A stretch of 13,237 nucleotides of DNA from a virus, in the UHGV virus genome UHGV-0118721, one strand, 5' to 3'. This document shows, in pieces, positions 1-13,237 of this stretch. The translations under genes and the position numbers were made by a program. The notes beneath the pieces are model-generated. The model saw only the letters and a program-made list of their open reading frames with translations. It ran no database searches and had not been told where the DNA came from. The first letter of the stretch is position 1. Each line of letters begins with the position of its first letter.

Positions 1-3
1 CTT

Positions 4-44
4 TGTGTACACTTTTGTGTACCCAAAAACAAAAATGTGTACCC
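4..44 (+). repeat. Three direct repeats of TGTGTAC(C)C immediately upstream of int (4-12, 16-24, 36-44)
   Basis: TGTGTACAC, TGTGTACCC and TGTGTACCC at 12- and 20-nt offsets, at the very edge of the window, upstream of the likely int start. Confidence 0.5.
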
Positions 45-49
45 ATTCA

Positions 50-1243
50 ATGATCACCGACACAAAGCTCAGGAAGGCGCTCGGCAAGAAAAGAGATGAT
101 ATCGAGATTATTTCTGATTCGCACGGGCTCAACGCCAGAATCAGCCAGGCCGGAAAAATATCATTTTTCTATCGGTATCGCTGGGCCGGTAAAGCGGTAA
201 AACTCAATGTTGGTGATTATCCTGCAATGAGTATCACCCAGGCAAGAGAGCGTCGCCAACAATTCAGAAACTGGTTAACTGAGGGACTGGATCCGCGAGA
301 GCAGGTGAAGCTGGATAAGCAGACCCGACAGGAAGCGATGTCCGTTGCCGAAGCGTTCAATTACTGGATTGAAAGGCACTGTATCGCTAACGGGCTAGTT
401 AAAGTCGATTACTATCGCCAGGTGTTTGAGAAACATATCGCCGAACCGATGAAGAATGTCAAAGTCGATAACACAGCGAAAATGCACTGGATCAACGTCT
501 TCGATTCTATAGAAAGCAGGGTGATGGCTCATTACATGCTTTCGCTGTGCAAACGGGCGTTTAGGTTCTGCGTTAACAGAAGTGTGATCGCCTCAAACCC
601 ACTCGAGGGATTACTGCCATCTGATGTCGGGCAAAAGCCTAAAAAGAGAACTCGCAGGATGGACGATGACGATCTGCGCAAAATCTATCAGTGGTTGAAA
701 AGCCATATGTCGATAGAGTCCGTTTTCCTGGTGAAATTTATTATGCTTACCGGATGCCGTACGGCTGAGATTCGACTTAGTGAGAGATCATGGTTTCGAT
801 TGGATGATAATGAGTGGGTCGTGCCTGCGGGCAGTTATAAAACTCGGGTACATATTAGAAGGGGACTCTCAGACGCCGCCGTTAACCTGGTCAGAAATCA
901 CCTCAAGAAAATAAACACCAATCACCTGGTGACTTCACAACGTAAAATTGATGGCGGGATCAAAGATTCGCCCGTTCATTCACCTGTGGCATCCAATTAC
1001 GCCCGTTCTATTTGGAATGGAACAGGTATGGCAGAGTGGTCGCTTCATGATATGAGGCGGACGATAGCCACAAATCTCTCTGAGTTAGGTTGCCCGCCGC
1101 ACGTAATTGAAAAGCTGCTCGGGCATCAGATGGTGGGGGTTATGGCGCATTACAACCTTCATGACTATATCGATGATCAGAAACACTGGCTCCGCGTTTG
1201 GCAGAGCCATCTTGAAGAGATCATCGGAGAGCCCTTCAGTTAA
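50..1243 (+). CDS. int: Phage integrase, tyrosine recombinase (P4-like N-terminus [13 protein letters not shown])
   Basis: ORF track 5..1243 begins at GTG; first plausible start is ATG at 50 ([10 protein letters not shown]...). The C-terminus carries the tyrosine-recombinase residue pattern: [11 protein letters not shown] (Arg), HDMRRT (H-x-x-R), [12 protein letters not shown] (Tyr). Neither the ATG at 35 nor the one at 50 has a clear SD, so the start is uncertain by about 15 nt. Confidence 0.85.
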
Positions 1244-1482
1244 TTTATCTTCTTTTTATCCTCCCACTCTTTGATTGACTCAGAGCGCCAGCGGTTAGGG
1301 TTGCCGGGCCAGTCAGGGGGTGGGAACGGGCATACGAAGCCCCGAGGCATTGTGTCTGCACTTTGCCATGACCAAAGGGTTTTGCGTGAAATTTTGTAGC
1401 GACTGGTCAGGTCTGACGTTACCAAAATATCATCCATAGCTCTCTCCAGTTGCCCGTTCGGGCCATTCAAAATCTTTTTCAA
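1240..1482 (-). CDS. xis: Excisionase-like small DNA-binding protein (AlpA/Xis-type HTH)
   Basis: 80 aa ORF convergent with int; stop codons overlap in the palindrome TTAA (1240-1243). Motif [23 protein letters not shown] resembles the winged-helix recognition region of phage excisionases. Start overlaps the upstream gene stop (ATGA). Homology not verified. Confidence 0.6.
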
Positions 1483-1721
1483 CCAATCTGCCCGGGCAGG
1501 GAGCGGAGACGGCGCATGCCGGTCATCGCTGTGGCCACGTAGCTCGCCTTTCGGTTCACCACCTCCACCCAGACTTTCACGCCTTCAACCTTCACCGTAT
1601 AAGTCTCTTTCATCTTGCTTCGCCCATAGTCGCCATATGTTTGCAAGTGAGCTGCCAGCGCGATGTCGCATGCTTGGCGAGCTAAAGGTGATTGCTTACT
1701 TCCTCGATTGATCAGTCGCAT
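1479..1721 (-). CDS. Hypothetical small protein (80 aa)
   Basis: ORF with a strong SD (AAGGAG, about 7 nt upstream of the ATG at 1721) and ATGA translational coupling to the downstream xis-like gene. No family recognised by eye. Confidence 0.5.
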   Translation of the reverse strand: MRLINRGSKQSPLARQACDIALAAHLQTYGDYGRSKMKETYTVKVEGVKVWVEVVNRKASYVATAMTGMRRLRSLPGQIG

Positions 1722-1733
1722 ATAATCTCCTTG

Positions 1734-1752
1734 AGGGAGGGTTACCCCTCCC
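1734..1752 (-). other. GC-rich stem-loop (GGGAGGGG-TTA-CCCCTCCC) in the 38-nt spacer between the recT-like stop and the next gene's SD
   Basis: Perfect 8-bp G/C stem with a 3-nt loop. No U-tract follows on either strand, so it is not a canonical intrinsic terminator. Confidence 0.4.
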
Positions 1753-1759
1753 GGTCTCG

Positions 1760-2878
1760 TCAGGCCACGTATTCCGGTTTCATATCCGCCAGGGTGATGC
1801 TGAATTGATCGTGCAGTTCATCGCCTAAGTGACGCTTTGAAGATGCAAGCATGCGCTCGGCTTCAGCGAACCGTTCGGCTGCATGCGGCTCGTCGGGCTG
1901 GGGCAGGGATTTAATAGCCTCCTCAACCTTGTTGCGTGCATCCACTAGGTAATAACGCTTTACGGCTTTGTTTTTCAGCTCGGTGAATAGTGCGGATCCC
2001 AGCGTAGCTTTCGCCGTTTCAATGTCGGCACGCAGCGATTTGGCGCTATCCACGTCCTGAGCAGATTCGATGCGTTCGCGGAAATCATCGGCAAGAGAGT
2101 CGACATTTACCGACGATTCCTGTGCGCTTTGCGTGGTTGTGACGGTGTCACCTGAGATATCAGCCAGGCTAACGCGTTGCGGCGTTGGGTTGATCTCTTT
2201 TTCTGTGCGCTGTTCAATCTCATCAGGGGTGTACACACCAAGAACAACTGCAGGGCAATATAGGCGCGCCCAGTATTTGAGTGCCAGATAAGCGATCTGC
2301 TGTTTCGGGTTTGATACCCAAAGTGGAGAATTACGTGTGATTACGCTGGAGAGGAAAACAGGCTCTCCCCAGGTGATATCACTTTCACCGCGAATAACGG
2401 CACCTACCCGTACCGACAGTCCTTGTTCATCAGCACTTTCCCAACCGCGTACCATTTCTTTCTTGTCGTACGTCCCGCCACCTTTCGCAGGCTTTTTAAC
2501 GGTTATCTCGCGGCTGCTGGCACATTTCGACCAGTCGCCCTCGTACTCATAGTGAAAGCGGCCAACGATGGCGTTTGAGCTGGAGATCACCGCATTAACC
2601 AGTTGCGCTTCGTATCCCAGGACACCGTTAACCAGGTGCGTCTTTTGCGCCACGGCGTAAGGGTTCATACCCCACTGCATCGCCTGCATGATGATGGCCA
2701 TGCAGTCTGCCGGATTGCCGCGGAGGTGCTCAGGCACCGTTACGGCTGCCTGTGCCATCAACCCGGCGACAGACTGAAGCTGGGTTAAAGCCTGCACGTT
2801 GAAAATGGCATTGCTGGCTGAGATCGTGTTTGGAGTCTGCTGTTCAGCGGTTACGATATTCGTGTTTTCCATCATCAT
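1760..2878 (-). CDS. recT: RecT/Redbeta-family ssDNA annealing protein (probable), with an acidic C-terminal extension
   Basis: 372 aa ORF immediately downstream of the RecE-like gene. Segments CMAIIMQAMQWGMNPYAVAQKTHLVNGVLGYEAQLV and WVSNPKQQIAYLALKYWARLYCPAVV resemble the conserved core and C-terminal helix pattern of RecT. Three tandem ATGs at 2878/2875/2872 follow SD GGGGA; true start is probably 2872 or 2875. Confidence 0.65.
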   Translation of the reverse strand: MMMENTNIVTAEQQTPNTISASNAIFNVQALTQLQSVAGLMAQAAVTVPEHLRGNPADCMAIIMQAMQWGMNPYAVAQKTHLVNGVLGYEAQLVNAVISSSNAIVGRFHYEYEGDWSKCASSREITVKKPAKGGGTYDKKEMVRGWESADEQGLSVRVGAVIRGESDITWGEPVFLSSVITRNSPLWVSNPKQQIAYLALKYWARLYCPAVVLGVYTPDEIEQRTEKEINPTPQRVSLADISGDTVTTTQSAQESSVNVDSLADDFRERIESAQDVDSAKSLRADIETAKATLGSALFTELKNKAVKRYYLVDARNKVEEAIKSLPQPDEPHAAERFAEAERMLASSKRHLGDELHDQFSITLADMKPEYVA

Positions 2879-2883
2879 TCCCC

Positions 2884-5800
2884 TTATGCCTGAGTACGCA
2901 GCGCTTCAAGGCGGCGCAGGTCGAAGTCGTTCAGTTCGTCGGTGTAGTCAGCAGTGATTGGCGCTGGCCATTCACCTGTGTCGAATCCGGTTGCGATATT
3001 GCGCATCGCTTTGCGGTACTCGAGCATACCCAGCTCCAGTAGTTCAGCGGATGCCTCGATGATGGCGATCCAGTGGTAGTTCTCGTCTTTGTTGACGAAA
3101 ATCCAGAAGAACTGATCCAGCGCTGCGGTTTCGCAGTACATAGCCGCGCTCAGGTGATAATCACGTTCAATAATTTCCCGGTGTAGCCTGGCGCGCAGGC
3201 TTTCCTGCTTAACATTCCACATGCTGATGGTTTTCAGGTCTGCACCTATACGCACGCCATCCAGGTCGATCTCAAGGTCAGGGCGCACACGAACTTCCAA
3301 GCCCGTCTCCTCGTCAAAACCAAAGTAGCTCACCTCAACGGCTCGGCTAGGGTGGGTCAGCAGCATGCCGGCGGTCGGGTGTGCCAGAAGCGCTTTTTGA
3401 ATATTCAGCGCGGTGCTCAGCTGCTGGCGGGTGACCAGCACTTTTCCTTCCGGGTTATCGCGCCAGGCATCCAGCAGTTCGTCGGCAAATACGGCATCTG
3501 GTTTGACTGCCTTCACGGCCTGGATCATGTCTGCTTTGGTACCGGACACTTTCAGTGGTGCCGGTTTCTGTGCTTCCTGAGCCACAAGGTCAGGGTTGAT
3601 GATTGCCAACTGCTCCAGCAGCGCGTCACGGCTGCCGCTGGTTTTAACCGGCGGCGGCAGGGTGGCGTTGTACTCTTTAATGCATGCCTTCATTGCCGTC
3701 GCCGTCTGCTTCTGGTCACCATCAATACGCTGGAAGTCAGCTGGCAGCGCCATATAGTTCTGTGCCGTTTCTTCCAGGTTAGCGCCAAGCGGAACCTGCG
3801 GCGGCAGGGTGGCGTTGTACTCTTCCAGTAACACCTTGATGTCGTCGGCAGACAGCAGCGCCGGCAGGCTGGCATTGTGCTCATCGATAAAGGCGCGCAG
3901 GGTCGCGGCCGTTGTGAATGCGCCTTCAGGGATCACCGGTTCAACGCTGAATTCTGCGTCCAGTAGTTCAGGCTGCAACGCCAGCGCATGCACCAAGTTG
4001 CCCATGTCCAGCACCGCTGAGCGCTCTTTGACGATGGTTTTCTCTACGTGGCGCGCATTGAAGTACATCAGCGAAACGCGCGCATCTTTCACCTGGGTTG
4101 AGCTGATGCCGTTGGCGGCGTGGTAAACCTCGTTTGGCAGCCCTTCATAGCGGCCTGGCTCGAAATAAGCGGGATAAACAACAGCTGGTTCGTCAGATTG
4201 CGCTTCTGGCTCGGTTTGTGCTGCAACTGGTTCGGTTTGGCTTACAGAATCGCTATTTTTGGCGACAGAATCCGTATTCTGGTCTACATCGTCCTTCTGG
4301 CTGGTATCTGACTCTTCACCAGACTCCAGACTGCTTTCGCCTGGCTGTACTTCATCACCAGCTTGTTTTTCATCACTGACAGTTTCTTGAACCTGCACAT
4401 TGCTGGTGGTCTCCGTAGCCTTTTTCGTGCCATGAGTTGCTGAGTTCTGCAGCAAAGCCGTAACGTCGAATATTCCGTTGCCGACATTTTTAACCAGTTC
4501 TTGTTCGACTTTCTGCGGTTGTGCTGCCGCTTCCTCTGCGCGGCGGCGTGCTCCTTCTTCACGCACGCGTTGCAGGTTCTCTTCGTGAGTGCAGAAGGAT
4601 TTGCGCGGAGACTCCTTACCTTCAGGTTGGGGAATTTCCTGTGCTGCGGGTTCAGCCTCATGCAACGGCAATAACTCGACCGCGGAATTGAACGCGGCTG
4701 TCATGGTCTGGTTAACAAATTCCAGGTGAGCGACAGGAGTTAAATGAATATTTTCCGGTGCGATACGTACCAGGTTAAAAATAGCCGTGCGGTTAACACC
4801 CAGAACGCCTGGCTGATTGCGCAGGATGTTGCTCCATGATTTCCATGGTTCTTCTTTTTTGGTCACGATTTCTTTAGCGCGACGAAGAATGCTGCCCGGG
4901 ATCTCGAAGTGGTTGAAGTCCATAGGCAGAAGGGCACACGCAATCTCTAAATCGAGAGTGTCCAGTGTGTGGTGTGCGTCAGGTCCACGGTCAGTGACGT
5001 AACCGCCGTCGGCATTAGTGCCGGAATCAGTACGCTGCACACTACTGATGCGATTACCGGCGGCCCATTCGCGAACGAGGATACCGCGGTCGATGTGATC
5101 TGTAGCGAACCACAATTTCAAAAACTGGATTAAGGTTGCGAGTTCAGGGATTTTTCCATCGACAGGGAAGACTTTCTTAACGGCATTCACGACTTTATGA
5201 ATATCGTGCTCAATGGCTTTTTTGAATGCTTCCACATTCTCAGCTGCCAGCAGCAGGTTCTGGACGTACGCGTCATCGGTGTCCATCTCAAGGCGGACAA
5301 TCTCATTTTTCTGCCCTGCGTCGATGTGATAGAGATATTCACCATCACCGATGAACTGAGCCAGTACGCGCTGGCGGAATGGCAGGGTGGCAACAACGAT
5401 CAGGTTCGGTTGCTGTGTCTGCTGGGATTGCTCTTCGGTATCGACTTCACCATCAACGACGCCACCTTCTGCCCGGCCGTTCTCGTCGGTCTGGATACCG
5501 TCCTCAACAGTGAGATCTTGACCCGTTGTAACGTCAGCAGCGTTGCTGGTTTCAGTTTTGAGCAACTGCAACTTACCACTGCGCCAGTCTTCTACCAGTT
5601 GATTGCGGTCACCGGCATCGGTGTTCACCCAGTCAGACATGAATGCAGCGATCAATCTTGGTTCGTGCTCTTCGTCTGGTGTGAAAATGTCCTTAACCGC
5701 CCGAATCATTTTCCACTCAGCATTCAGGCTGAGTTTGGCGGTCGCGGGCACATCGTTCCTTGCCACAAGCAGGCTATGGAGATATGTATTGCCTTCATCC

Positions 5801-6273
5801 AGTGACATTTCGCTGGCAGCCAACTGCTGCTCTTTAGTGACGTGGGTTTGGTATTTATCGTTCATCAGATGGACGGCAAAGCGGACCGCTGGAGTACGGT
5901 TTTCAACCGGGACAATTTCGGACGCAGTCGCATCTTCAACGATTACGGTCGGAGTAGGTGTGTAGGGGGCGTCAACGGAACCAGTAGACACACCAGCGGC
6001 TTTTGGCAGCCAGGTGCGCCCATCGTCCTGAAGCTCGTAGCGATCACACCAGGTAAAATCAACTTCACCTTCTTTCGGCAGGCCGTCGACAACTGGGAAA
6101 TCAGTGCGAATCGGTTTGGCGTAGTCCTTACCCCGACCTGTTTCGATACCTGCATCTTCCAGCGCAACATCCAGCATCAGATTGGCGCGAGCCTCGGTTT
6201 TAGCAGTGAACCAGACCACTGCATCTTGCTTTCCGGATTTCTGAGTGGCTTTAACCACATTAAAGAATTCCAT
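2884..6273 (-). CDS. recE: RecE-like exodeoxyribonuclease VIII (large, 1129 aa, C-terminal PD-(D/E)xK nuclease domain)
   Basis: Long ORF with SD GAGGA 7 nt upstream of the ATG at 6273. Near the C-terminus, RPDLEIDLDGVRIGADLKT has the D...D-x-K spacing of PD-(D/E)xK nucleases as in RecE. Gene order (large exonuclease then annealing protein, same strand) matches the Rac recE-recT operon. Contains an acidic Ser/Asp/Glu-rich linker and an internal 147-nt periodic repeat. Confidence 0.75.
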   Translation of the reverse strand: MEFFNVVKATQKSGKQDAVVWFTAKTEARANLMLDVALEDAGIETGRGKDYAKPIRTDFPVVDGLPKEGEVDFTWCDRYELQDDGRTWLPKAAGVSTGSVDAPYTPTPTVIVEDATASEIVPVENRTPAVRFAVHLMNDKYQTHVTKEQQLAASEMSLDEGNTYLHSLLVARNDVPATAKLSLNAEWKMIRAVKDIFTPDEEHEPRLIAAFMSDWVNTDAGDRNQLVEDWRSGKLQLLKTETSNAADVTTGQDLTVEDGIQTDENGRAEGGVVDGEVDTEEQSQQTQQPNLIVVATLPFRQRVLAQFIGDGEYLYHIDAGQKNEIVRLEMDTDDAYVQNLLLAAENVEAFKKAIEHDIHKVVNAVKKVFPVDGKIPELATLIQFLKLWFATDHIDRGILVREWAAGNRISSVQRTDSGTNADGGYVTDRGPDAHHTLDTLDLEIACALLPMDFNHFEIPGSILRRAKEIVTKKEEPWKSWSNILRNQPGVLGVNRTAIFNLVRIAPENIHLTPVAHLEFVNQTMTAAFNSAVELLPLHEAEPAAQEIPQPEGKESPRKSFCTHEENLQRVREEGARRRAEEAAAQPQKVEQELVKNVGNGIFDVTALLQNSATHGTKKATETTSNVQVQETVSDEKQAGDEVQPGESSLESGEESDTSQKDDVDQNTDSVAKNSDSVSQTEPVAAQTEPEAQSDEPAVVYPAYFEPGRYEGLPNEVYHAANGISSTQVKDARVSLMYFNARHVEKTIVKERSAVLDMGNLVHALALQPELLDAEFSVEPVIPEGAFTTAATLRAFIDEHNASLPALLSADDIKVLLEEYNATLPPQVPLGANLEETAQNYMALPADFQRIDGDQKQTATAMKACIKEYNATLPPPVKTSGSRDALLEQLAIINPDLVAQEAQKPAPLKVSGTKADMIQAVKAVKPDAVFADELLDAWRDNPEGKVLVTRQQLSTALNIQKALLAHPTAGMLLTHPSRAVEVSYFGFDEETGLEVRVRPDLEIDLDGVRIGADLKTISMWNVKQESLRARLHREIIERDYHLSAAMYCETAALDQFFWIFVNKDENYHWIAIIEASAELLELGMLEYRKAMRNIATGFDTGEWPAPITADYTDELNDFDLRRLEALRTQA
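3651..3824 (-). repeat. Intragenic direct repeat inside recE-like gene: 27-nt identical copies at 3651-3677 and 3798-3824 (147 nt = 49 codon period), degenerate third copy near 3860-3882
   Basis: gcggcggcagggtggcgttgtactctt occurs twice on the + strand; in the coding frame it gives the repeated peptide EYNATLPP (also IDEHNASLP). Confidence 0.8.
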
Positions 6274-6412
6274 GTGAGATCCTCATTTTTGGGTGTTAGA
6301 ATCCCCGGACCATTGATAGCGCCCATTGGGTTAACTTTGGTTTTAATGTTGTTTCCGGTGTAACTTTGGTCGGTACCACCGGACGTAGATCCCGCCTTGC
6401 GCGGGTTTTACG

Positions 6413-6574
6413 TTAGCCTTCGTGAGCCATCTGGTCGTGCGAAGCGCAACGTTTGGAGCAATACTCTTTTTCTTTGCGCGCCAGCTGTGAGCCGTTGCGA
6501 TAGAGAAGGGTGCTCTTGATTACTTCCTCCGTTTTAACCGGCTTGCCGCAATATCCGCATTTCTTGTCTAACAT
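6413..6574 (-). CDS. Small zinc-ribbon protein (53 aa; CxxC...CxxxC), possibly YdaE-like
   Basis: Not in the ORF track (below length cut-off). ATG at 6574 is preceded by SD GGAGG at 5 nt spacing. Translation MLDKKCGYCGKPVKTEEVIKSTLLYRNGSQLARKEKEYCSKRCASHDQMAHEG has four Cys in two pairs. Sits in the position of Rac ydaE between recE and a kil-like gene. Identity is inferred from synteny only. Confidence 0.45.
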   Translation of the reverse strand: MLDKKCGYCGKPVKTEEVIKSTLLYRNGSQLARKEKEYCSKRCASHDQMAHEG

Positions 6575-6585
6575 GACATCCTCCG

Positions 6586-6792
6586 CTAGTGGCTGAGTCC
6601 ATGCCCCAGACCGTTCAGATAAACTTCAACCAGCAAATCCCTGGTGTAAGTCATCTCAACGCCGCGATGCAGATACAAACGACCACGAGCATTAGCTGAT
6701 GCCGTCCAGGTTGAATCCTTGTGTTTGACGAGCATTCCAGGCTGAACTGCGCCGCGGTTTACCGTCTGTGTACCGTAGTGCTGATGAACCAT
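6586..6792 (-). CDS. Hypothetical small protein (68 aa from the internal start; the ORF is open to 6951)
   Basis: ORF track gives 6586..6951 (121 aa), but the ATG at 6951 has no SD, whereas the in-frame ATG at 6792 has GGAGA 5 nt upstream. Stop is 11 nt before the downstream small zinc-ribbon gene. Occupies the position of kilR in Rac; function unverified. Confidence 0.4.
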   Translation of the reverse strand: MVHQHYGTQTVNRGAVQPGMLVKHKDSTWTASANARGRLYLHRGVEMTYTRDLLVEVYLNGLGHGLSH

Positions 6793-6971
6793 GATGTTCT
6801 CCACTATTGCTGAGTGAACTTCGCTGGTGGTGCCGTGACGCTGATCTTCACAGTTGAGCGTTTTAACTCTGCAGTTCACCACCGCGAAACCCACTCTTAT
6901 GTGCCTGTCTTTTATCCACTTCAGGCTCGGTGGTATGCTGGTAGTTCTCACACAGCCAGCAAGGAATAACT

Positions 6972-7265
6972 ATGAAATCAGTAACTAAGCCATGTCCTAT
7001 TTGTGGTGAAGATTCTTTGTCTTTTAACCAGACAAATCAGTTGGTTAACATCAAAGTAAAACCACCAACTATTCGTGAAGTTCCATCAGTGGTTTACGTT
7101 TGCGATACTCACGGATGGTTTTCACTTTCAGAACAGATAAACAGACTCGTCACATCTAATGACGACCCTGCGGCTAAGCAAAAACTGGCTGTTATTGTCA
7201 AAGAGCGATATGTGCCGGAACAGGATCAGCCGTTAGCCCTGAAACCTATTGAGTCGCTCGCATAA
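6972..7265 (+). CDS. Small zinc-finger protein (97 aa; CPICG...C-x2-H, resembles a YgiT/MqsA-type N-terminal zinc ribbon)
   Basis: SD-like AAGGA upstream of the ATG at 6972. Ligand pattern C8, C11, C44, H47. Oriented opposite to the surrounding leftward genes, as sieB is in Rac, but it has no transmembrane segment so it is not SieB-like. Confidence 0.5.
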   Translation: MKSVTKPCPICGEDSLSFNQTNQLVNIKVKPPTIREVPSVVYVCDTHGWFSLSEQINRLVTSNDDPAAKQKLAVIVKERYVPEQDQPLALKPIESLA

Positions 7266-7515
7266 GGTCTTTTCGGCTCTCGCTGCGATATCCCAGGCGG
7301 TACATTTTCACGTAGGCTTTGCCGCGAGGAATGCCGCCTGTTTTGTTGAATCTCTGCTGGGCGCGGCGATGGTGTTTTGCTTCAGGGCTGTTTGAACCTT
7401 TCCCGCCATTCGATCGAGAACTTGGGAGTTGCATTGGCTTTTGGCGTGAATAGAATTTACGTGCCCAGCATGCTCCAAAGCCGATCATGCCTGTTTTCTT
7501 CGTATTACCTTTCAT
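7246..7515 (-). CDS. Hypothetical basic, low-complexity protein (89 aa); candidate N-like antiterminator by position only
   Basis: First leftward ORF downstream of the predicted pL-like promoter. Rich in Lys/Arg/Gly/Ser. SD GAGGGG upstream of the ATG at 7515. Its 3' end overlaps the convergent + gene by 20 nt, which lowers confidence. Confidence 0.3.
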   Translation of the reverse strand: MKGNTKKTGMIGFGACWARKFYSRQKPMQLPSSRSNGGKGSNSPEAKHHRRAQQRFNKTGGIPRGKAYVKMYRLGYRSESRKDLMRATQ

Positions 7516-7594
7516 CTCAATCCCCTCGTTTGCCCTTGTCGCCAGGCCAGCGGAACGTTTGAACTTGATGCGCTTAGTGTTTCTCGATGGGGTG

Positions 7595-7623
7595 ATGATA
7601 GCTAAGGCGATTTATTTTATCAA
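7595..7623 (-). promoter_or_regulatory. Candidate leftward early promoter (pL-like): -35 TTGATA (7618-7623), 17-nt spacer, -10 TATCAT (7595-7600), with overlapping operator-like half-sites
   Basis: Read on the minus strand: TTGATA-17-TATCAT. Sequences resembling the ATCGC-N4-GCGAT operator motif of the OR region occur at 7621-7636 (AATCGC ttaa ACGATA) and 7597-7612 (GATAGC taag GCGATT). Confidence 0.35.
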
Positions 7624-7960
7624 TCGCTTAAACGATAATATTGTGATTTTGCCGATTATTATTTGATTTATAAAGTGATTTATTTTTGTATGAGATGCGT
7701 GATATGCTCAAAAAAACACCAGGCGGGGATATTGATATGGGTTTAGGAATGGATATGTCACGTGATGAGCTGCTGGAAGATCGCGCTGCTTTCATGGCTG
7801 GCGAGATTGGCGGTGCAGTTGTCGAGTAGATAATCAACGGTGTGGTGATAAGTCGAGATGCGATAGTAGATAGCTTGGAGACTAAGCGTCGCGCGGTTGG
7901 AAATGTGATTCACAAAGGAGTGTTGTGGGATGTCACTGCTATGGTGAGAAAAGGAATATG

Positions 7961-7983
7961 AAAACCGGCATAATGCCGGTTTA
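7961..7983 (-). terminator. Intrinsic terminator after the membrane-protein gene (analogous in position to lambda tIMM)
   Basis: Minus-strand RNA: stop UAA, then stem ACCGGCA / loop UUA / UGCCGGU (7964-7980), then UUUUCAUAUUCCUUUU. The palindrome also reads as a hairpin on the + strand. Confidence 0.6.
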
Positions 7984-8610
7984 CTTTGATTTTTCCTGTT
8001 GGTGAAGTACTCGTGGAGTAGTTGGTTCTTGAGGTAATTGGATGATAACAGGTTGCTGCGCTACTGGTTGAACTACGGGCGGATCACTCTTCAAGGCAGA
8101 AACAAGACTAGGTAATGCAACGACAACCGCAATGATAACGCCAAAAATAGCAAGCCTAGTGGAAATACCTGATTGAATACCGCCAATCGCAGTGTTTATT
8201 CCTGTAATTTGCCCTTGTATACCTTCGAATTTGCCATTGATGGCTTTTACATCCCCATCAACGCTATCCATTTTCCCTTCAATTTTAGAAGAAATAGAGC
8301 TAATAGATGAATTGAGCGATGCCAGCTGAACGTTCATATTCTCGCGTGACAAAGCCATTTCAGCTCTAATCGAAGATGCAATGGACTCCATCTCCGCCTT
8401 ATTGGCAGCTAGAAGTGCTTGCATTTCTTCACGGCTAACTGATGACATTTCATTTCCCCCATCAGTTTCATTAGCTTCATCTGTTGATTTGATAAAGTTA
8501 GTATACATTTCTTCTTTATCGACGCGTAGTCTGTTTTGAACATTGGGGTACAGGTCATCTTTATCAATGCCAGAACCGCAGTCTGGGACAGCTTTGAGAG
8601 ATGGGCCCAT
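7981..8610 (-). CDS. Membrane-anchored coiled-coil protein (209 aa): N-terminal soluble coiled-coil region, one transmembrane helix, Pro/Gln-rich C-terminal tail; candidate exclusion/abortive-infection effector
   Basis: ATG at 8610 overlaps the upstream gene stop (ATGA); the track's GTG at 8613 is one codon upstream. Heptad-like Ser/Ile-rich region (SLNSSISSISSKIEG...GIQGQITGINTAIGGIQSGIS), hydrophobic helix LAIFGVIIAVVVALPSLVSAL, then tail PPVVQPVAQQPVIIQLPQEPTTP. Low-GC sequence. Confidence 0.75.
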   Translation of the reverse strand: MGPSLKAVPDCGSGIDKDDLYPNVQNRLRVDKEEMYTNFIKSTDEANETDGGNEMSSVSREEMQALLAANKAEMESIASSIRAEMALSRENMNVQLASLNSSISSISSKIEGKMDSVDGDVKAINGKFEGIQGQITGINTAIGGIQSGISTRLAIFGVIIAVVVALPSLVSALKSDPPVVQPVAQQPVIIQLPQEPTTPRVLHQQEKSK

Positions 8611-8972
8611 CACTTCCCATCCTCTCCTTGATCTTCTTTTCTTTTATTAATCAGTGTCCTGGCTTTTTTATAAGAAAAAAGCAGTACATGTGCGCAGTGA
8701 TCACACGTGATTCGAAATAGTGGCATACCGCCAGGATATGTCACAGCACTATCAGTATCAGGTTTGTATTGTGCATAACTAAGTGTTTCGATCACATGAT
8801 GTTTTGGCTGATTTTCTTCTACATCAAGATCAAAGGCACCAACTACAGACCATGACTGGTTCCCGCAGATTTGGCAAGTTATTGGTTTTTTGAATGAATT
8901 TATGAAATCAATGAACTCATCCGCTGTGATAATCTCGGAGTTTGCTTCACTATGAAATAATTCCGATTTCAT
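8610..8972 (-). CDS. Zinc-ribbon protein (120 aa; CxxC at C33/C36 and C90/C93); first gene of a two-gene operon downstream of the repressor
   Basis: Track ORF starts at TTG 8996; the first ATG (8972) has SD AAGGA 8 nt upstream. Motifs ITCQICG and ITCDHCAH. Low-GC sequence, 44 nt after the repressor stop. No family recognised by eye. Confidence 0.7.
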   Translation of the reverse strand: MKSELFHSEANSEIITADEFIDFINSFKKPITCQICGNQSWSVVGAFDLDVEENQPKHHVIETLSYAQYKPDTDSAVTYPGGMPLFRITCDHCAHVLLFSYKKARTLINKRKEDQGEDGK

Positions 8973-9016
8973 AATTATGATCCTTTTCTGGGCCAAAGTA
9001 GATAAAAAGTACAGTT

Positions 9017-9700
9017 TTACAATCGGTTATACTTTATTGATTCATGAATCAATGCCTTACCCATTACGTAGAGTTGATCCTGATTACCTTCGTTAATGTA
9101 CCACTTCTCATAAGCTGAGTTATCAGACAAAACTGCCAACCTATCGCCCTGCATCTGCAAGCGCTTCACATGGAAATGTTGTCCGAAAACGAACGCATAA
9201 ACACCGTCGACCTTGAAGTTTCTTACAGAAATATCGAAAAACAATCTGTCACCAGACTGTATAGTTGGACACATGCTGTCGCCATCGACCGTCATTACTT
9301 TTACGTCTTCCTGAGAACGATTTCCGAAGAGTGAACGAGCGTGTTCGGTTGTGAACTCAATGGCGTGTAGAACCTCAACAAACTCAGAAATCATGAAAGA
9401 ACCTGGCCCCGCGCTAAATGTCAGGTCAAGTACGTCAACTCTGAATATGTTTGAGTCTTTTTTTGTCGCGGTAATGGGAGGCGGTAGCTGGCCATCGTTA
9501 CGCATCGGTCCGGATCCCGTGGAAAGCCATTCAGGGCGAACATTGAGAACAGAAGCTATCTCGACCGTTTTTCTTGAGCTTGATGCACCATTTAGCAGCT
9601 TGTTAACACTTGACTGTGCCATGCCAACTGCCTTAGCTAGCTTGCCCTGTGTATAACCCGCCTCATTCATTGCGCGATCTAATCGCTCAGAAAAACTCAT
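9017..9700 (-). CDS. CI-like prophage repressor: N-terminal XRE-type HTH plus C-terminal S24 (LexA-like) autopeptidase domain
   Basis: Start chosen at ATG 9700 (MSFSERLDRAMNEAGYTQGKLAKAVGMAQSSVNKLL = HTH). The track's upstream extension is read-through of the promoter region. C-terminal VDGDSMCPTIQSGDRLFFD...HFHVKRLQ matches the Ser/Lys dyad context of S24 peptidases. Confidence 0.9.
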   Translation of the reverse strand: MSFSERLDRAMNEAGYTQGKLAKAVGMAQSSVNKLLNGASSSRKTVEIASVLNVRPEWLSTGSGPMRNDGQLPPPITATKKDSNIFRVDVLDLTFSAGPGSFMISEFVEVLHAIEFTTEHARSLFGNRSQEDVKVMTVDGDSMCPTIQSGDRLFFDISVRNFKVDGVYAFVFGQHFHVKRLQMQGDRLAVLSDNSAYEKWYINEGNQDQLYVMGKALIHESIKYNRL

Positions 9701-9729
9701 TAAAGATACCCCCCTAATAACCTTCATAA

Positions 9730-9803
9730 ATATTATCGCCACAGCGATTAATAAGCAAAAAATCGCATAGGCGATTGACATTCGTTAAAGCGATAAACAT
9801 AAT
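9730..9803. promoter_or_regulatory. Divergent immunity switch: repressor promoter (minus; -35 TTGCTT 9753-9758, -10 TAATAT 9730-9735), rightward promoter (plus; -35 TTGACA 9775-9780, -10 CATAAT 9798-9803), and palindromic operators
   Basis: Both promoters have 17-nt spacers. Operator-like palindromes: AATCGC-ATAG-GCGATT (9761-9776, perfect arms, overlapping the rightward -35) and TTATCGC-CACA-GCGATTA (9733-9750, overlapping the repressor promoter spacer/-10). A further GCGAT half-site at 9790-9794 lies in the rightward spacer. Confidence 0.6.
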
Positions 9804-9830
9804 CAACCTAAATTGATAGAAGGAGCGATT

Positions 9831-10061
9831 ATGAAAAACCCTGCTGTAGAAAAAGCGATTGCAATCGCCGGTAGTCAGAAAGAGCTAGCGAAGCGATGTG
9901 GTAAGGCCCAATCCACGGTCTGTGACTGGTTAAATGGGAAAAAACAAATCTCCCCGATCCATGTTCCTGTTTTGGTAAAGGCAAGCGAAGGACAGATTCA
10001 AGCTCATGAATTCCGTCCCGACCTTCCTGAATTGTTTCCGCATCCACATTCAGCCGCCTGA
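9831..10061 (+). CDS. Cro-like / YdaS-family HTH regulator (76 aa)
   Basis: ATG at 9831 with SD AGGAG at 5-nt spacing (the track's TTG at 9813 is unlikely). HTH-like segment SQKELAKRCGKAQSTVCDWLNGKK. Divergent from the repressor across the operator region. Confidence 0.75.
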   Translation: MKNPAVEKAIAIAGSQKELAKRCGKAQSTVCDWLNGKKQISPIHVPVLVKASEGQIQAHEFRPDLPELFPHPHSAA

Positions 10062-10092
10062 CCGGCGGCGCTAACCATCAAGGGAAAGCACT

Positions 10093-10632
10093 ATGCAATC
10101 ACTTACGTTTTACCAGGATACAGGAGTACCGCAACAAGCGGTGATAAATCGCGCTCAAACCTATAAGGGGCCGTGTCACGAAGATATTCGAAATGCCGTT
10201 CGTTCATGGGCGGGTGTAGATGGTCAGGATGTCGTTTCTGCTCTGATCGTCGAAGAGTACCGGGCGCAGGGTGGTTATGACATCACTTTCCCTGACGATC
10301 TCTGCCGAAAGCGGCAGAAGCTTTTCCGCTTCCTGGATAACCATTTCAACAGCGAACGGTACCGTGAGAACGTTCGCCAGCTGACTCCGGCAATCCTGGC
10401 GGTCCTGCCGATTGAATACCGCAACCGTCTGCTACCAGAAGACAACGTTATGGCCCGCCTGGCTCGGCTGGAGAAAGAAACCAGCGAAGCGAAGATTGCC
10501 GTCGCAATGGATGCGCCACGCCATCAAAAGCTGAAAGAGTTGAGCGAGGGGATCGTGGAGATGTATCGCGTTGACCCTGGGTTAACCGGTCCACTGATGG
10601 AGATGGTGCAGATGATGCTGGGGGCTATATGA
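10093..10632 (+). CDS. YdaT-like (CII-position) regulatory protein (179 aa)
   Basis: SD AAGGGA upstream of the ATG. Lies immediately after the cro-like gene as ydaT does in Rac. Segments HEDIRNAVRSWAGVDGQDV and QKLFRFLDN resemble YdaT as I recall it; family assignment unverified. Confidence 0.5.
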   Translation: MQSLTFYQDTGVPQQAVINRAQTYKGPCHEDIRNAVRSWAGVDGQDVVSALIVEEYRAQGGYDITFPDDLCRKRQKLFRFLDNHFNSERYRENVRQLTPAILAVLPIEYRNRLLPEDNVMARLARLEKETSEAKIAVAMDAPRHQKLKELSEGIVEMYRVDPGLTGPLMEMVQMMLGAI

Positions 10633-10716
10633 CCGGTTCAAAAATGGCGAAAGCCGCGGTGCGCGAACACCAACGGCTTTCAGGTGCAAAAACAGTGCGT
10701 AATTGCGGAGAACAGT

Positions 10717-11625
10717 ATGTCAAACACCGCTGAAATAATCAATTTCCCAAATAAAACCGAACAACCGGGAGGTCGTATGGCCGACCTGTCGAACGGGTAT
10801 ACCAAGGTCGCTAACGAGATCCAACAGCTTAAGCCTCGCCTGAGACTGTCAGGCCGGGAATGGCAATGTTTTGAGGCGGTGATCTGGCTTACCTACGGCT
10901 GGAACAAGAAACAGGACCGCGTGACAAATACGGTTATTGCCGAGCTTACGGGCCTGAGCGATACGCATGTATCGGACGCGCTTAAGTCTCTCGCAGAACG
11001 CAAAATCATCTTTTCACAGAAGCAGGGCATGATGAAAATCGTCGGTGTAAACACTGACCTTTCAGCATGGATTTTAGACAAACCGGAAACGGGAAGAAAA
11101 TTCCCGAAAACGGGAAAATCCTTCCCGAAATCAGGAATAACCTTCCCGAAAACGGTAGACACCCAATACAAGAACAAGAACAGTATTAAAAGATCTTCGT
11201 CCGAGAATTCTGACGAATCCTCTGACGCACGTCTGAAGAAATTTTTATCAACTCATCCTGAAGCTGCGGTCTACACACCATCCGGTGCGAAGTGGGGCTC
11301 TGCTGAAGACCTCGAGACAGCTAAGTGGATTTCCTCCAGGGTGAAGCTGATTAACCCAACCTGCAAAGCCCCGGACATGACCTCCTGGTCTAACACTGTT
11401 CGCCTGATGCGCCAGATAGACAACCGGTCGCACCAGGACATCTGCGCGCTGTATGACTGGGCTAGCAAACACCACTTCTGGCAGACCAACATCCTGAGTC
11501 CCGAAAGCCTGCGTAAGCAGTGGGACAAGCTGACAATGCAGCGTAACGCCGGAGGTGAGCAGCGCGCTGTCAAGCCAGATCTGGACTTCAACAACACTGA
11601 CTGGGCCTATGGGGTGATCCGATGA
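10717..11625 (+). CDS. O: Replication initiation protein, lambda O-like (302 aa)
   Basis: Start at ATG 10717 (SD GGAG, 7-nt spacing; the track's GTG at 10684 is unlikely). N-terminus MSNTAEIINF...ADLSNGYTKVANE...LTYGWNK closely parallels lambda O (MTNTAKILNF...ADLDDGYARLSN...KTYGWNK). Iteron repeats lie inside the gene as in lambda. Confidence 0.85.
   Translation: MSNTAEIINFPNKTEQPGGRMADLSNGYTKVANEIQQLKPRLRLSGREWQCFEAVIWLTYGWNKKQDRVTNTVIAELTGLSDTHVSDALKSLAERKIIFSQKQGMMKIVGVNTDLSAWILDKPETGRKFPKTGKSFPKSGITFPKTVDTQYKNKNSIKRSSSENSDESSDARLKKFLSTHPEAAVYTPSGAKWGSAEDLETAKWISSRVKLINPTCKAPDMTSWSNTVRLMRQIDNRSHQDICALYDWASKHHFWQTNILSPESLRKQWDKLTMQRNAGGEQRAVKPDLDFNNTDWAYGVIR
11081..11161 (+). repeat. Origin-of-replication iterons within the O-like gene: about four 20-22 bp repeats (consensus TTCCCGAAAACGGGAAAA), followed by an AT-rich stretch (11162-11260)
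   Basis: Copies at 11084-11097 (CCGGAAACGGGAAG), 11102-11119, 11124-11141 and 11144-11161. Each contains an internal inverted repeat (TTCCCG/CGGGAA). They encode the FPK(T/S)G peptide repeat. The downstream segment is AT-rich. Confidence 0.6.
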
Positions 11626-12311
11626 AATCTCTTGCAGAGCAGGTGCGTAACCACGACCGCGAGCAGATGAGCCGCATGGCCCATAACCTGCCAGAGCAGT
11701 ACCAGGAGTGCGCGCCGGTCGAGCAGGTGGCGCAGGTATTCAACAAGCTGTTCAACGAGCTGCGCGCCGCGTTCCCGGCCAGCATGGCGAACTTCCGCAC
11801 CCAGGAAGACCTGAACGAATTCCGCCGTCAGTGGCTGCTGGCGTTTCAGGAGAACGGGATCCACACCATGGCTCAGGTCGATGCCGGCATGCGCATTGCC
11901 CGCCGCCAGGAGCGCCCATTCCTGCCGTCGCCGGGCCAGTTTGTCGCCTGGTGCAAGCAGAGCGGCGGCGCGCTGGGCGTCAACGTTGACCAGGTGATCG
12001 CCGAATACTGGGACTGGCGTAACCGCTCGTTCGAATTCATCTCCAGCGAGCAATTTCCATGGTCGCAGCCGGTCATGTACCACATTTGCGTAGAATTGCG
12101 CCACCGCAGCACCGAGCGCCAGTTAACGCATGGTGAACTGGCACGCGAGGCAGGCGATCTGCTGGACATGTGGGAAAGGCGCGTCACCGAGGGTAAGCCA
12201 GTGCCGCCGGTACGCCGGGCTATTGCCGCACCAGCTGCCGAGCAAGGGCCGACGCCGATCCAGCTGCTGCTGGCCAAGTACAACCGCAACAAGTCGAACG
12301 GGATGGTGTGA
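11622..12311 (+). CDS. P: Replication protein P-like (lambda P family, DnaB helicase loader)
   Basis: Translation MKSLAEQVRNHDREQMSRMAHNLPEQYQ...RPFLPSPGQFVAWCKQ parallels lambda P (MKNIAAQMVNFDREQMRRIANNMPEQYD...RPFLPSPGQFVAWCRE). Start overlaps the O stop (ATGA). Confidence 0.85.
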   Translation: MKSLAEQVRNHDREQMSRMAHNLPEQYQECAPVEQVAQVFNKLFNELRAAFPASMANFRTQEDLNEFRRQWLLAFQENGIHTMAQVDAGMRIARRQERPFLPSPGQFVAWCKQSGGALGVNVDQVIAEYWDWRNRSFEFISSEQFPWSQPVMYHICVELRHRSTERQLTHGELAREAGDLLDMWERRVTEGKPVPPVRRAIAAPAAEQGPTPIQLLLAKYNRNKSNGMV

Positions 12312-12312
12312 C

Positions 12313-12657
12313 ATGAACATAACAATCCGTGAGCAGGTGCTGGCAGCCCTGCGCAACAACCCAGGGTTGAACAACGCCAAACTGGCAGGGCTTATCGGCA
12401 TGGACACCAAAAAGATATCCGGAACGGTGAGCACGCTGCTGGCAGACGGCCTGATCCGCTGCGAAGGAAAATACGGCCAGCGCCTTTACAGCCTGACCAG
12501 CTACGGAATGCGCTTCGCCCCTGACACGATACCTGGCATGAAGCAGGGTAAGTCGAAGTTAATTCAGCGGACGGACACAAACGTGATCTGCCAGGAGTTC
12601 CGCAACAGCGCGGCGATGAAGCGAGTATTGATGGTTTGGGGGAGGGCAGGGGTATGA
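12313..12657 (+). CDS. ren: Ren-like protein (114 aa)
   Basis: Starts 1 nt after the P stop. C-terminus ICQEFRNSAAMKRVLMVWG parallels lambda Ren (FKECRQSAAMKRVLAVYG); the mid-region alignment is also plausible. The track ORF 12130..12657 includes an out-of-context N-terminal extension. Confidence 0.6.
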   Translation: MNITIREQVLAALRNNPGLNNAKLAGLIGMDTKKISGTVSTLLADGLIRCEGKYGQRLYSLTSYGMRFAPDTIPGMKQGKSKLIQRTDTNVICQEFRNSAAMKRVLMVWGRAGV

Positions 12658-13187
12658 GCAATAAATACGAAGATCTGATTAAAAGCGCCAGGATGAATGC
12701 CGATTGTGGTGAGCACATGTCACCGGCAGAAGTTACGACTCTCCTTAACGTGGTTGAAGCCAAGTGCGCGGCGCTGGCTGCGGAGTTGAGTGCAATTGAA
12801 GCAATTCACAATGACGCGGTGTTCATCACCGATGCTCATTACGATCAATGCCATCCAGAAGTACAGAAGATTATCGGAGCTCTGGCTGTGCTGCAGATTC
12901 CTGCGTACCAGGCTTTCCTGGCTGAAGTGCGGGCGCAAGCCCACAAGGAAGGCGCTCACTTTGTTGCCAACCGAATGCTGGCTGCATGGGAGGCTGGGTT
13001 TATCGAAGACACAGCGAAGAACGCTGCGGACATCGCACGAATGATACTGACCTCCACAGAGTTTATGGATGATGCGCCGGAAGGCGATTTCGATCGCTCG
13101 TTCGCTGATGGTGTACTCGAAGACATCGCCGCCCAGATTCGCAAGGGGGAGCGCAATGGACCAACATCGAGGAAGAAAAATACCTGA
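12654..13187 (+). CDS. Hypothetical protein (177 aa), nin-region position
   Basis: ATG at 12654 overlaps the ren-like stop (ATGA); purine-rich GGGAGGGCAGGGG upstream. No family recognised by eye. Confidence 0.55.
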   Translation: MSNKYEDLIKSARMNADCGEHMSPAEVTTLLNVVEAKCAALAAELSAIEAIHNDAVFITDAHYDQCHPEVQKIIGALAVLQIPAYQAFLAEVRAQAHKEGAHFVANRMLAAWEAGFIEDTAKNAADIARMILTSTEFMDDAPEGDFDRSFADGVLEDIAAQIRKGERNGPTSRKKNT

Positions 13188-13237
13188 GCCGTCACGACCT
13201 GACGGGACGGACGGTACTGGTGGATTGTGTCACGCTA

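Follow-up and report, generated by a model that had tools for sequence, protein, structure and literature searches.

The stretch of DNA analysed here, 13,237 nt in length and referred to as the window (all coordinates are positions in it, 1-13237), carries a series of short direct repeats in the middle of a gene for an O-like replication initiator, and the question raised by this locus is whether the repeats form a replication origin embedded in coding DNA or merely specify a repetitive stretch of protein. The original prediction favored a lambda-style origin, with about four internally palindromic iterons at 20-22 bp periodicity followed by an AT-rich segment. The replication genes themselves are readily assigned by domain content:

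10717-11625, plus strand: O-like initiator gene, equivalent to gene 15 of phage phi80; 302 aa, Pfam PF04492 Phage_rep_O (E=6e-25, aa 20-118).
10774-11070, plus strand: N-terminal DNA-binding domain of O (aa 20-118, Pfam match), winged-helix type; it presumably recognises the iterons.
11622-12311, plus strand: P-like helicase-loader gene, equivalent to phi80 gene 14; 229 aa, Pfam PF06992 Phage_lambda_P (E=2e-49).

The O protein also showed weak matches to HTH_Crp_2 (aa 68-102) and to a DtxR-type regulator (aa 52-108), and a PDB sequence search with O returned no solved homologue, only a weak match to a winged-helix regulator (E=0.009). The start codon of P overlaps the stop codon of O (ATGA, 11622-11625), which makes P a translationally coupled gene, and the P-type helicase-loader gene lies immediately 3' of O, as in modules of the ori-lambda type.

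The repeats were found where they had been predicted, as four 16-bp units in an exact 21-bp register between positions 11080 and 11158:

11080-11095: iteron 1, AAACCGGAAACGGGAA; right arm intact, left arm degenerate (3/6).
11101-11116: iteron 2, TTCCCGAAAACGGGAA; perfect palindrome (6+4+6).
11122-11137: iteron 3, TTCCCGAAATCAGGAA; one mismatch in an arm.
11143-11158: iteron 4, TTCCCGAAAACGGTAG; two arm mismatches, adjoining the A-rich tract.

The predicted periodicity is real and can be narrowed to exactly 21 bp; the palindrome claimed for every unit is perfect in iteron 2 alone among the four, and iterons 1, 3 and 4 are imperfect versions of it. Tandem Repeats Finder reports the same array (11083-11155, period 21, 3.5 copies, score 90), and a general repeat search detects three 31-nt copies spaced by 21 and 21 nt, with several inverted repeats among them. 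When the motif TTCCCGAAAACGGGAA was searched with up to 3 mismatches, the 13.2-kb window gave three matches, all of them at the iterons, against 0.14 expected by chance, so that chance is excluded; a count of three was reached in none of 200 shuffles. Thus the locus displays four direct repeats, internally dyad-symmetric and about two helical turns apart, as is found in ori-lambda-type origins. The units are in frame and encode the peptide KFPKTGKSFPKSGITFPKTV, with 7 residues per unit, and the predicted FPK(T/S)G repeat therefore does exist in the protein. It occupies aa 122-148 of the 302-aa O homologue, between the N-terminal DNA-binding domain and the C-terminal domain.

Comparison with known phages identifies the module. 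The region 10707-12311 is 99.5% identical in DNA sequence to genes 15 and 14 of phi80, and 99.6-99.8% identical to the corresponding region of the deposited phages HK225 and mEp237. Across the origin DNA proper (11041-11300) the identity to phi80 is 100%, base for base. The O protein is likewise 100% identical in amino acid sequence to phi80 gp15, and P matches phi80 gp14 at 227 of 229 residues, the two substitutions (V8M and D131E) being conservative. The GenBank entry for phi80 (JX871397) contains four features annotated 'protein_bind, gp15' inside gene 15; transferred with the offset given by the alignment, these fall at 11081-11095, 11101-11116, 11122-11137 and 11143-11157, that is, on the four iterons. 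By sequence, the repeats are therefore the already known replication origin of phi80, located inside the initiator gene and annotated as such in GenBank. The phi80 origin is represented by the records JX871397 and X13065, and it was reportedly first sequenced and compared with that of lambda by Grosschedl & Hobom in 1979 (Nature 277:621), a reference cited in both PMC3349717 and PMC5043065. With respect to phi80, only the surroundings differ here, namely the other immunity region, the RecE/RecT recombination genes and the two substitutions in P. The module is present in 176 of 5426 complete E. coli genomes (~3%).

The module was also compared with lambda, whose origin consists of four 18-bp iterons and a 38-bp AT-rich tract (PMC3349717). 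The gp15 protein aligns colinearly with lambda O over the whole length at 41% identity, the N-domains being diverged, and the DNA alignment pairs the four units with the annotated ori-lambda iterons 1-4; the A-rich and right-hand segments that come next are likewise homologous. In both phages the origin (lambda 39034-39160, inside gene O) lies between the N- and C-terminal domains of O and combines four iterons of the dyad-symmetric TCCC...GGGA type, A-rich in the center, with an adjacent A-rich tract (~38 bp in lambda) of equal strand bias, a right-hand conserved segment, and a coupled P gene. The iterons themselves are different: the unit is 16 bp long here (TTCCCGAAAACGGGAA) and 18 bp long in lambda (ATCCCTCAAAACGAGGGA-type), with another arm sequence, and the spacing is a regular 21 bp in contrast to 20, 24 and 23 bp in lambda. 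On the basis of hybrid work with lambda and phi80 by Furth and colleagues (1978), the initiators of the two phages are reportedly expected not to cross-recognise each other's sites. The Shiga toxin phages 933W and P27 also have iterons and an AT-rich region laid out inside O, with six lambda-type iterons as opposed to the four phi80-type iterons here, and Stx-phage O proteins have been footprinted on their iterons (PMC7466680). Taken together, the phi80 identity, the annotated gp15 sites and the lambda alignment bear out the reading of this locus as a lambda-style origin in an O-like gene, and we consider it very likely that the window contains a theta-type replication origin, located within the initiator gene of a lambdoid prophage of the phi80 type.

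The right-hand part of the origin comprises two further elements:

11159-11195: A-rich tract, 37 bp, strand-asymmetric, the presumed DNA-unwinding element (from composition and nearest-neighbour stability).
11196-11226: conserved segment on the right-hand side of the origin, TTCGTCCGAGAATTCTGACGAATCCTCTGAC; it contains an imperfect palindrome with AGAATTCT at its center.

The AT-rich segment that was predicted to follow the iterons is real, although modest. It has 32% GC and 20 A against 5 T on the top strand, and it contains the 40-mer of lowest stability in the O-P operon, which nevertheless ranks only 244th among the 13197 40-mers of the window; beyond it, the GC content stays at 38-47%, below that of the flanks, until ~11260. 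A strand-asymmetric A+T-rich tract of ~40 bp thus directly follows the last iteron, and beyond it lies a conserved segment with a palindrome, in the arrangement known from ori-lambda. The 31 bases of the right-hand segment are 100% identical to those of several lambda-like phages, and the segment TTCGTCCGAGAATTCTGACGAATCCTCTGAC is nearly identical to its lambda counterpart TTCGTCAGAGAATTCTGGCGAATCCTCTGAC around an EcoRI site. The right-hand segment is also the junction at which relatives exchange the C-terminal half of O, the DNA homology of many of them stopping at ~11220. The lambda records contain misc_recomb points (39157/8 and 39165/6) beside the conserved segment.

An alternative is that the repeats are a feature of the protein only, a flexible FPK[T/S]G tandem linker joining the two O domains with no role for the DNA. 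The 21-bp unit is in frame, the peptide repeat has a period of seven residues, and the linker is of low complexity, all of which would be expected under such an explanation. The two possibilities make different predictions about natural variation, and these were compared in 110 loci, comprising 107 from viral and genome collections, the phages PHB10 and Meifeng, and the window itself, with hosts spread over many Enterobacterales, including Enterobacter, Citrobacter, Klebsiella, Kluyvera, Pectobacterium, Xenorhabdus and Morganella. Four sites are present in 104 of the 110 loci and five in one, the rest being below the motif threshold, and 325 of 326 iteron spacings are exactly 21 bp. The original prediction had named the absence of the repeats from otherwise identical O genes of functional relatives as evidence against it, and none of the 110 loci is without them, so that the prediction stands.

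Variation by codon position was measured as the mean minor-allele fraction in 31 sequences thinned to <97% identity. In the N-domain of O it shows a normal coding signature (0.086, 0.044 and 0.308 at positions 1, 2 and 3, respectively), whereas in the iterons the corresponding values are 0.093, 0.032 and 0.065. Third positions in the iterons are therefore ~5-fold less variable than in the N-domain (0.065 vs 0.308, Mann-Whitney p=1.6e-8), and those of 11159-11220, which includes the A-rich tract, are also conserved (0.108, p=3e-6 vs the N-domain). The 4-5 bp spacers between the iterons are, in contrast, the most variable positions (0.256 vs 0.064 in the iterons, p=1.3e-5), and their variation extends to codon positions 1 and 2. 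Among the 31 diverged relatives the segment ACGGTAGACACCCAA at iteron 4 is nearly invariant. Since iteron third positions are conserved and the spacer codons are free to change at all three positions, the peptide is not the conserved object; the iterons are under selection as DNA sites, and not as an FPK(T/S)G linker peptide. The dyad symmetry of each unit, which a peptide repeat does not need, and the gp15 binding sites annotated on the units in the phi80 entry argue in the same direction. The explanation by peptide repetition alone, ruled out by the codon-position analysis, is accordingly left with hardly any probability.

Another interpretation concerns iteron 2, which together with a T run on the minus strand could form an intrinsic terminator of antisense transcription, either instead of or besides binding the initiator. 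A terminator scan does list TTCCCGTTTTCGGGAA followed by TTTTCTTCCC on the minus strand at 11116-11101. However, the scan found 6 sites against 3.1 expected by chance, the stem has only 6 pairs, and the same pattern arises from any palindrome followed by an A-tract; moreover, no antisense promoter is known downstream, and the four phased copies would be left unexplained. We rejected this interpretation as extremely improbable.

The genes around O and P have the composition of an immunity-replication block. The upstream promoter is:

9775-9803, plus strand: pR-like sigma-70 promoter, TTGACA-17-CATAAT (consensus scan, 11/12 matches), 5' of the cro-like gene.

Its position corresponds to pR of the phi80 annotation, and it would drive the cro-like and cII-like genes, O together with the origin, and P. 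Upstream of O are located a divergent S24/HTH repressor gene (9017-9781, minus strand), a YdaS/Cro-like gene and a YdaT/CII-like gene, and the whole set is the immunity-replication block of a lambdoid prophage. A search of the window for DnaA boxes (TTWTNCACA) found two matches, with 1.15 expected by chance; both are far from the origin and so give no sign of a DnaA-dependent element there.

Several other elements were noted in this neighborhood. Just upstream of the O start, a stable minus-strand hairpin (10649-10681) is followed by GCCAUUUUUG (10639-10681 in total), and the 88-nt stretch that contains it (10625-10712) folds at -27.5 kcal/mol with z=-3.05. This is the place of the M3 RNA in phi80 and of oop in lambda, the DNA to the left of 10707 being unlike that of phi80, and the hairpin probably terminates an antisense RNA, similar to oop, that is directed against the cII-like gene. 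A scan of the whole window against Rfam gave no family above threshold. A second terminator-like hairpin with a T run, a consensus match only, lies on the minus strand at 10761-10776, within the first 20 codons of O. The plus-strand gene directly after P (12313-12657) encodes a small winged-helix protein of HTH_24/MarR-like type; the domain corresponds to aa 66-110 of the ORF 12130-12657, the likely start of which is the ATG at 12313. A different gene occupies this place in phi80, and in Klebsiella relatives a MarR-family regulator is annotated there.

The probable mode of action of the origin can be described from the lambda paradigm. In lambda, the binding of O dimers to the iterons bends the DNA and opens the neighboring 40-bp A+T-rich region (PMC5043065), the opening taking place on supercoiled DNA and the origin being activated by transcription from pR (PMC5043065, PMC3349717, PMC7466680). 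By analogy, we infer that O binding, melting and DnaB loading proceed in similar steps in the phi80-type copy. Dimers of the O N-terminal domain would bind each of the sites, so that all of them line up along a single face of the helix and the DNA is wrapped into an O-some; if the DNA is supercoiled, and aided by pR transcription across the origin, the adjacent A-rich tract would then melt. The C-terminal domain of O would recruit a P-DnaB complex, in which P delivers DnaB, and the release of DnaB by host chaperones would lead to bidirectional replication.

The prophage in which the module resides is a mosaic. It begins with int and xis of phi80 (1-1700, 99.4%), continues with RecE/RecT genes of the HK225/mEp237/Gifsy type and with an immunity region unlike that of phi80, containing the S24 repressor and homologues of YdaS and YdaT, and then returns to phi80 in the replication genes. 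The large minus-strand ORF 2884-6273, the matching gene of which is annotated as RecE or exonuclease VIII in phage records, contains a tandem repeat of its own at 4236-4278 (unit of 21-22 nt, 2 copies, 81% match). The highest coverage of the window by any record of the phage collection is 67%, and by an E. coli genome 90%.

This context bears on a third possibility, that the origin sequence is intact but never fires, being a silent remnant within a defective prophage. No late genes are in view in the window, which ends ~900 bp after P, the E. coli genome closest to the whole window carries an IS903B insertion, and a decayed copy of the module does exist in Kluyvera. On the other hand, O is identical to the deposited phi80 protein and P is only two conservative changes away from it, the ORFs for int, recE/recT, cI and the cro-like and cII-like proteins are all open, and the same module is found in the deposited phages phi80, mEp237 and HK225. 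A silent relic is thus unlikely, and the preservation of O and P together with the presence of the same module in deposited phages indirectly supports the view, held in the original prediction, that the module would be functional rather than remnant.

Among the relatives, the two ends of the module have different histories. The N-domain of O remains 76-100% identical at the amino acid level and the phi80-type sites are kept with it, while identity in the C-terminal domain of O falls to ~46-55% and P ranges from 30 to 95%. To judge from these alignments, the N-domain and the iterons are inherited together, and the C-terminal half of O and P are swapped. This co-inheritance fits the two-domain picture of O, with the N-domain recognising the origin and the C-domain interacting with P, a picture that is said to have been built with lambda-phi80 hybrids by Furth and colleagues (1978). 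In two loci (L062 and L068) the O C-domain is only 50% identical to that of the window and P is 94-95% identical, which shows that these two parts are not strictly co-inherited. A Pectobacterium locus (L107) has kept the N-domain and the iterons, but homologues of the O C-domain and of P were not detectable downstream of them, and its partner protein may thus be another one.

Some relatives depart from the common architecture. The five-iteron origin belongs to an E. coli-type sequence (L062, IMGVR_UViG_3300013612_000006, positions 1864-1963), in which an exact in-frame 21-bp duplication of iteron 3 and its spacer adds FPKSGIT to the O linker. In Kluyvera genomosp. 3 YDC799 (L112, 1885-1905) a 1-bp deletion in iteron 2 reduces the spacing to 20 bp and shifts the frame of O, and this looks like a decaying copy. 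The locus of Morganella morganii H1r (L111, 1376-1454) has the left arm TTACCG in three of its four iterons, and at sites 1-3 the right arm shows the matching G-to-T change, reading CGGTAA or CAGTAA, so that the half-site changes are largely symmetric; its O N-domain is the most diverged of the set (76%). In Enterobacter relatives, however, iteron 3 by itself has TTACCG, and iteron 4 ordinarily has CGGTAG as its right arm. The Morganella origin may be a co-evolved specificity variant, and the broader proposal that the phi80-type origin family holds natural specificity variants is a tentative one that we regard as possible but rather doubtful.

For the window itself, the main outcome of this work is a correct annotation, the repeat-containing stretch being the origin of a phi80-type prophage replication module, with little significance beyond that. 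The small additions to what was known are: i) the signature at synonymous sites, ii) the five-iteron origin, iii) the frameshifted and decayed Kluyvera copy, and iv) the Morganella variant. The first of these is a clean illustration of the measurable trace that an origin leaves in the gene harboring it, the loss of the codon-position periodicity of variation. For the family, the comparison shows that the O N-terminal domain and the iterons move through phage genomes as a single recombination unit. Finally, if the arm change in Morganella is a co-evolved switch of initiator and iterons, the phi80-type family would provide a natural series for mapping how the O winged helix reads its site.
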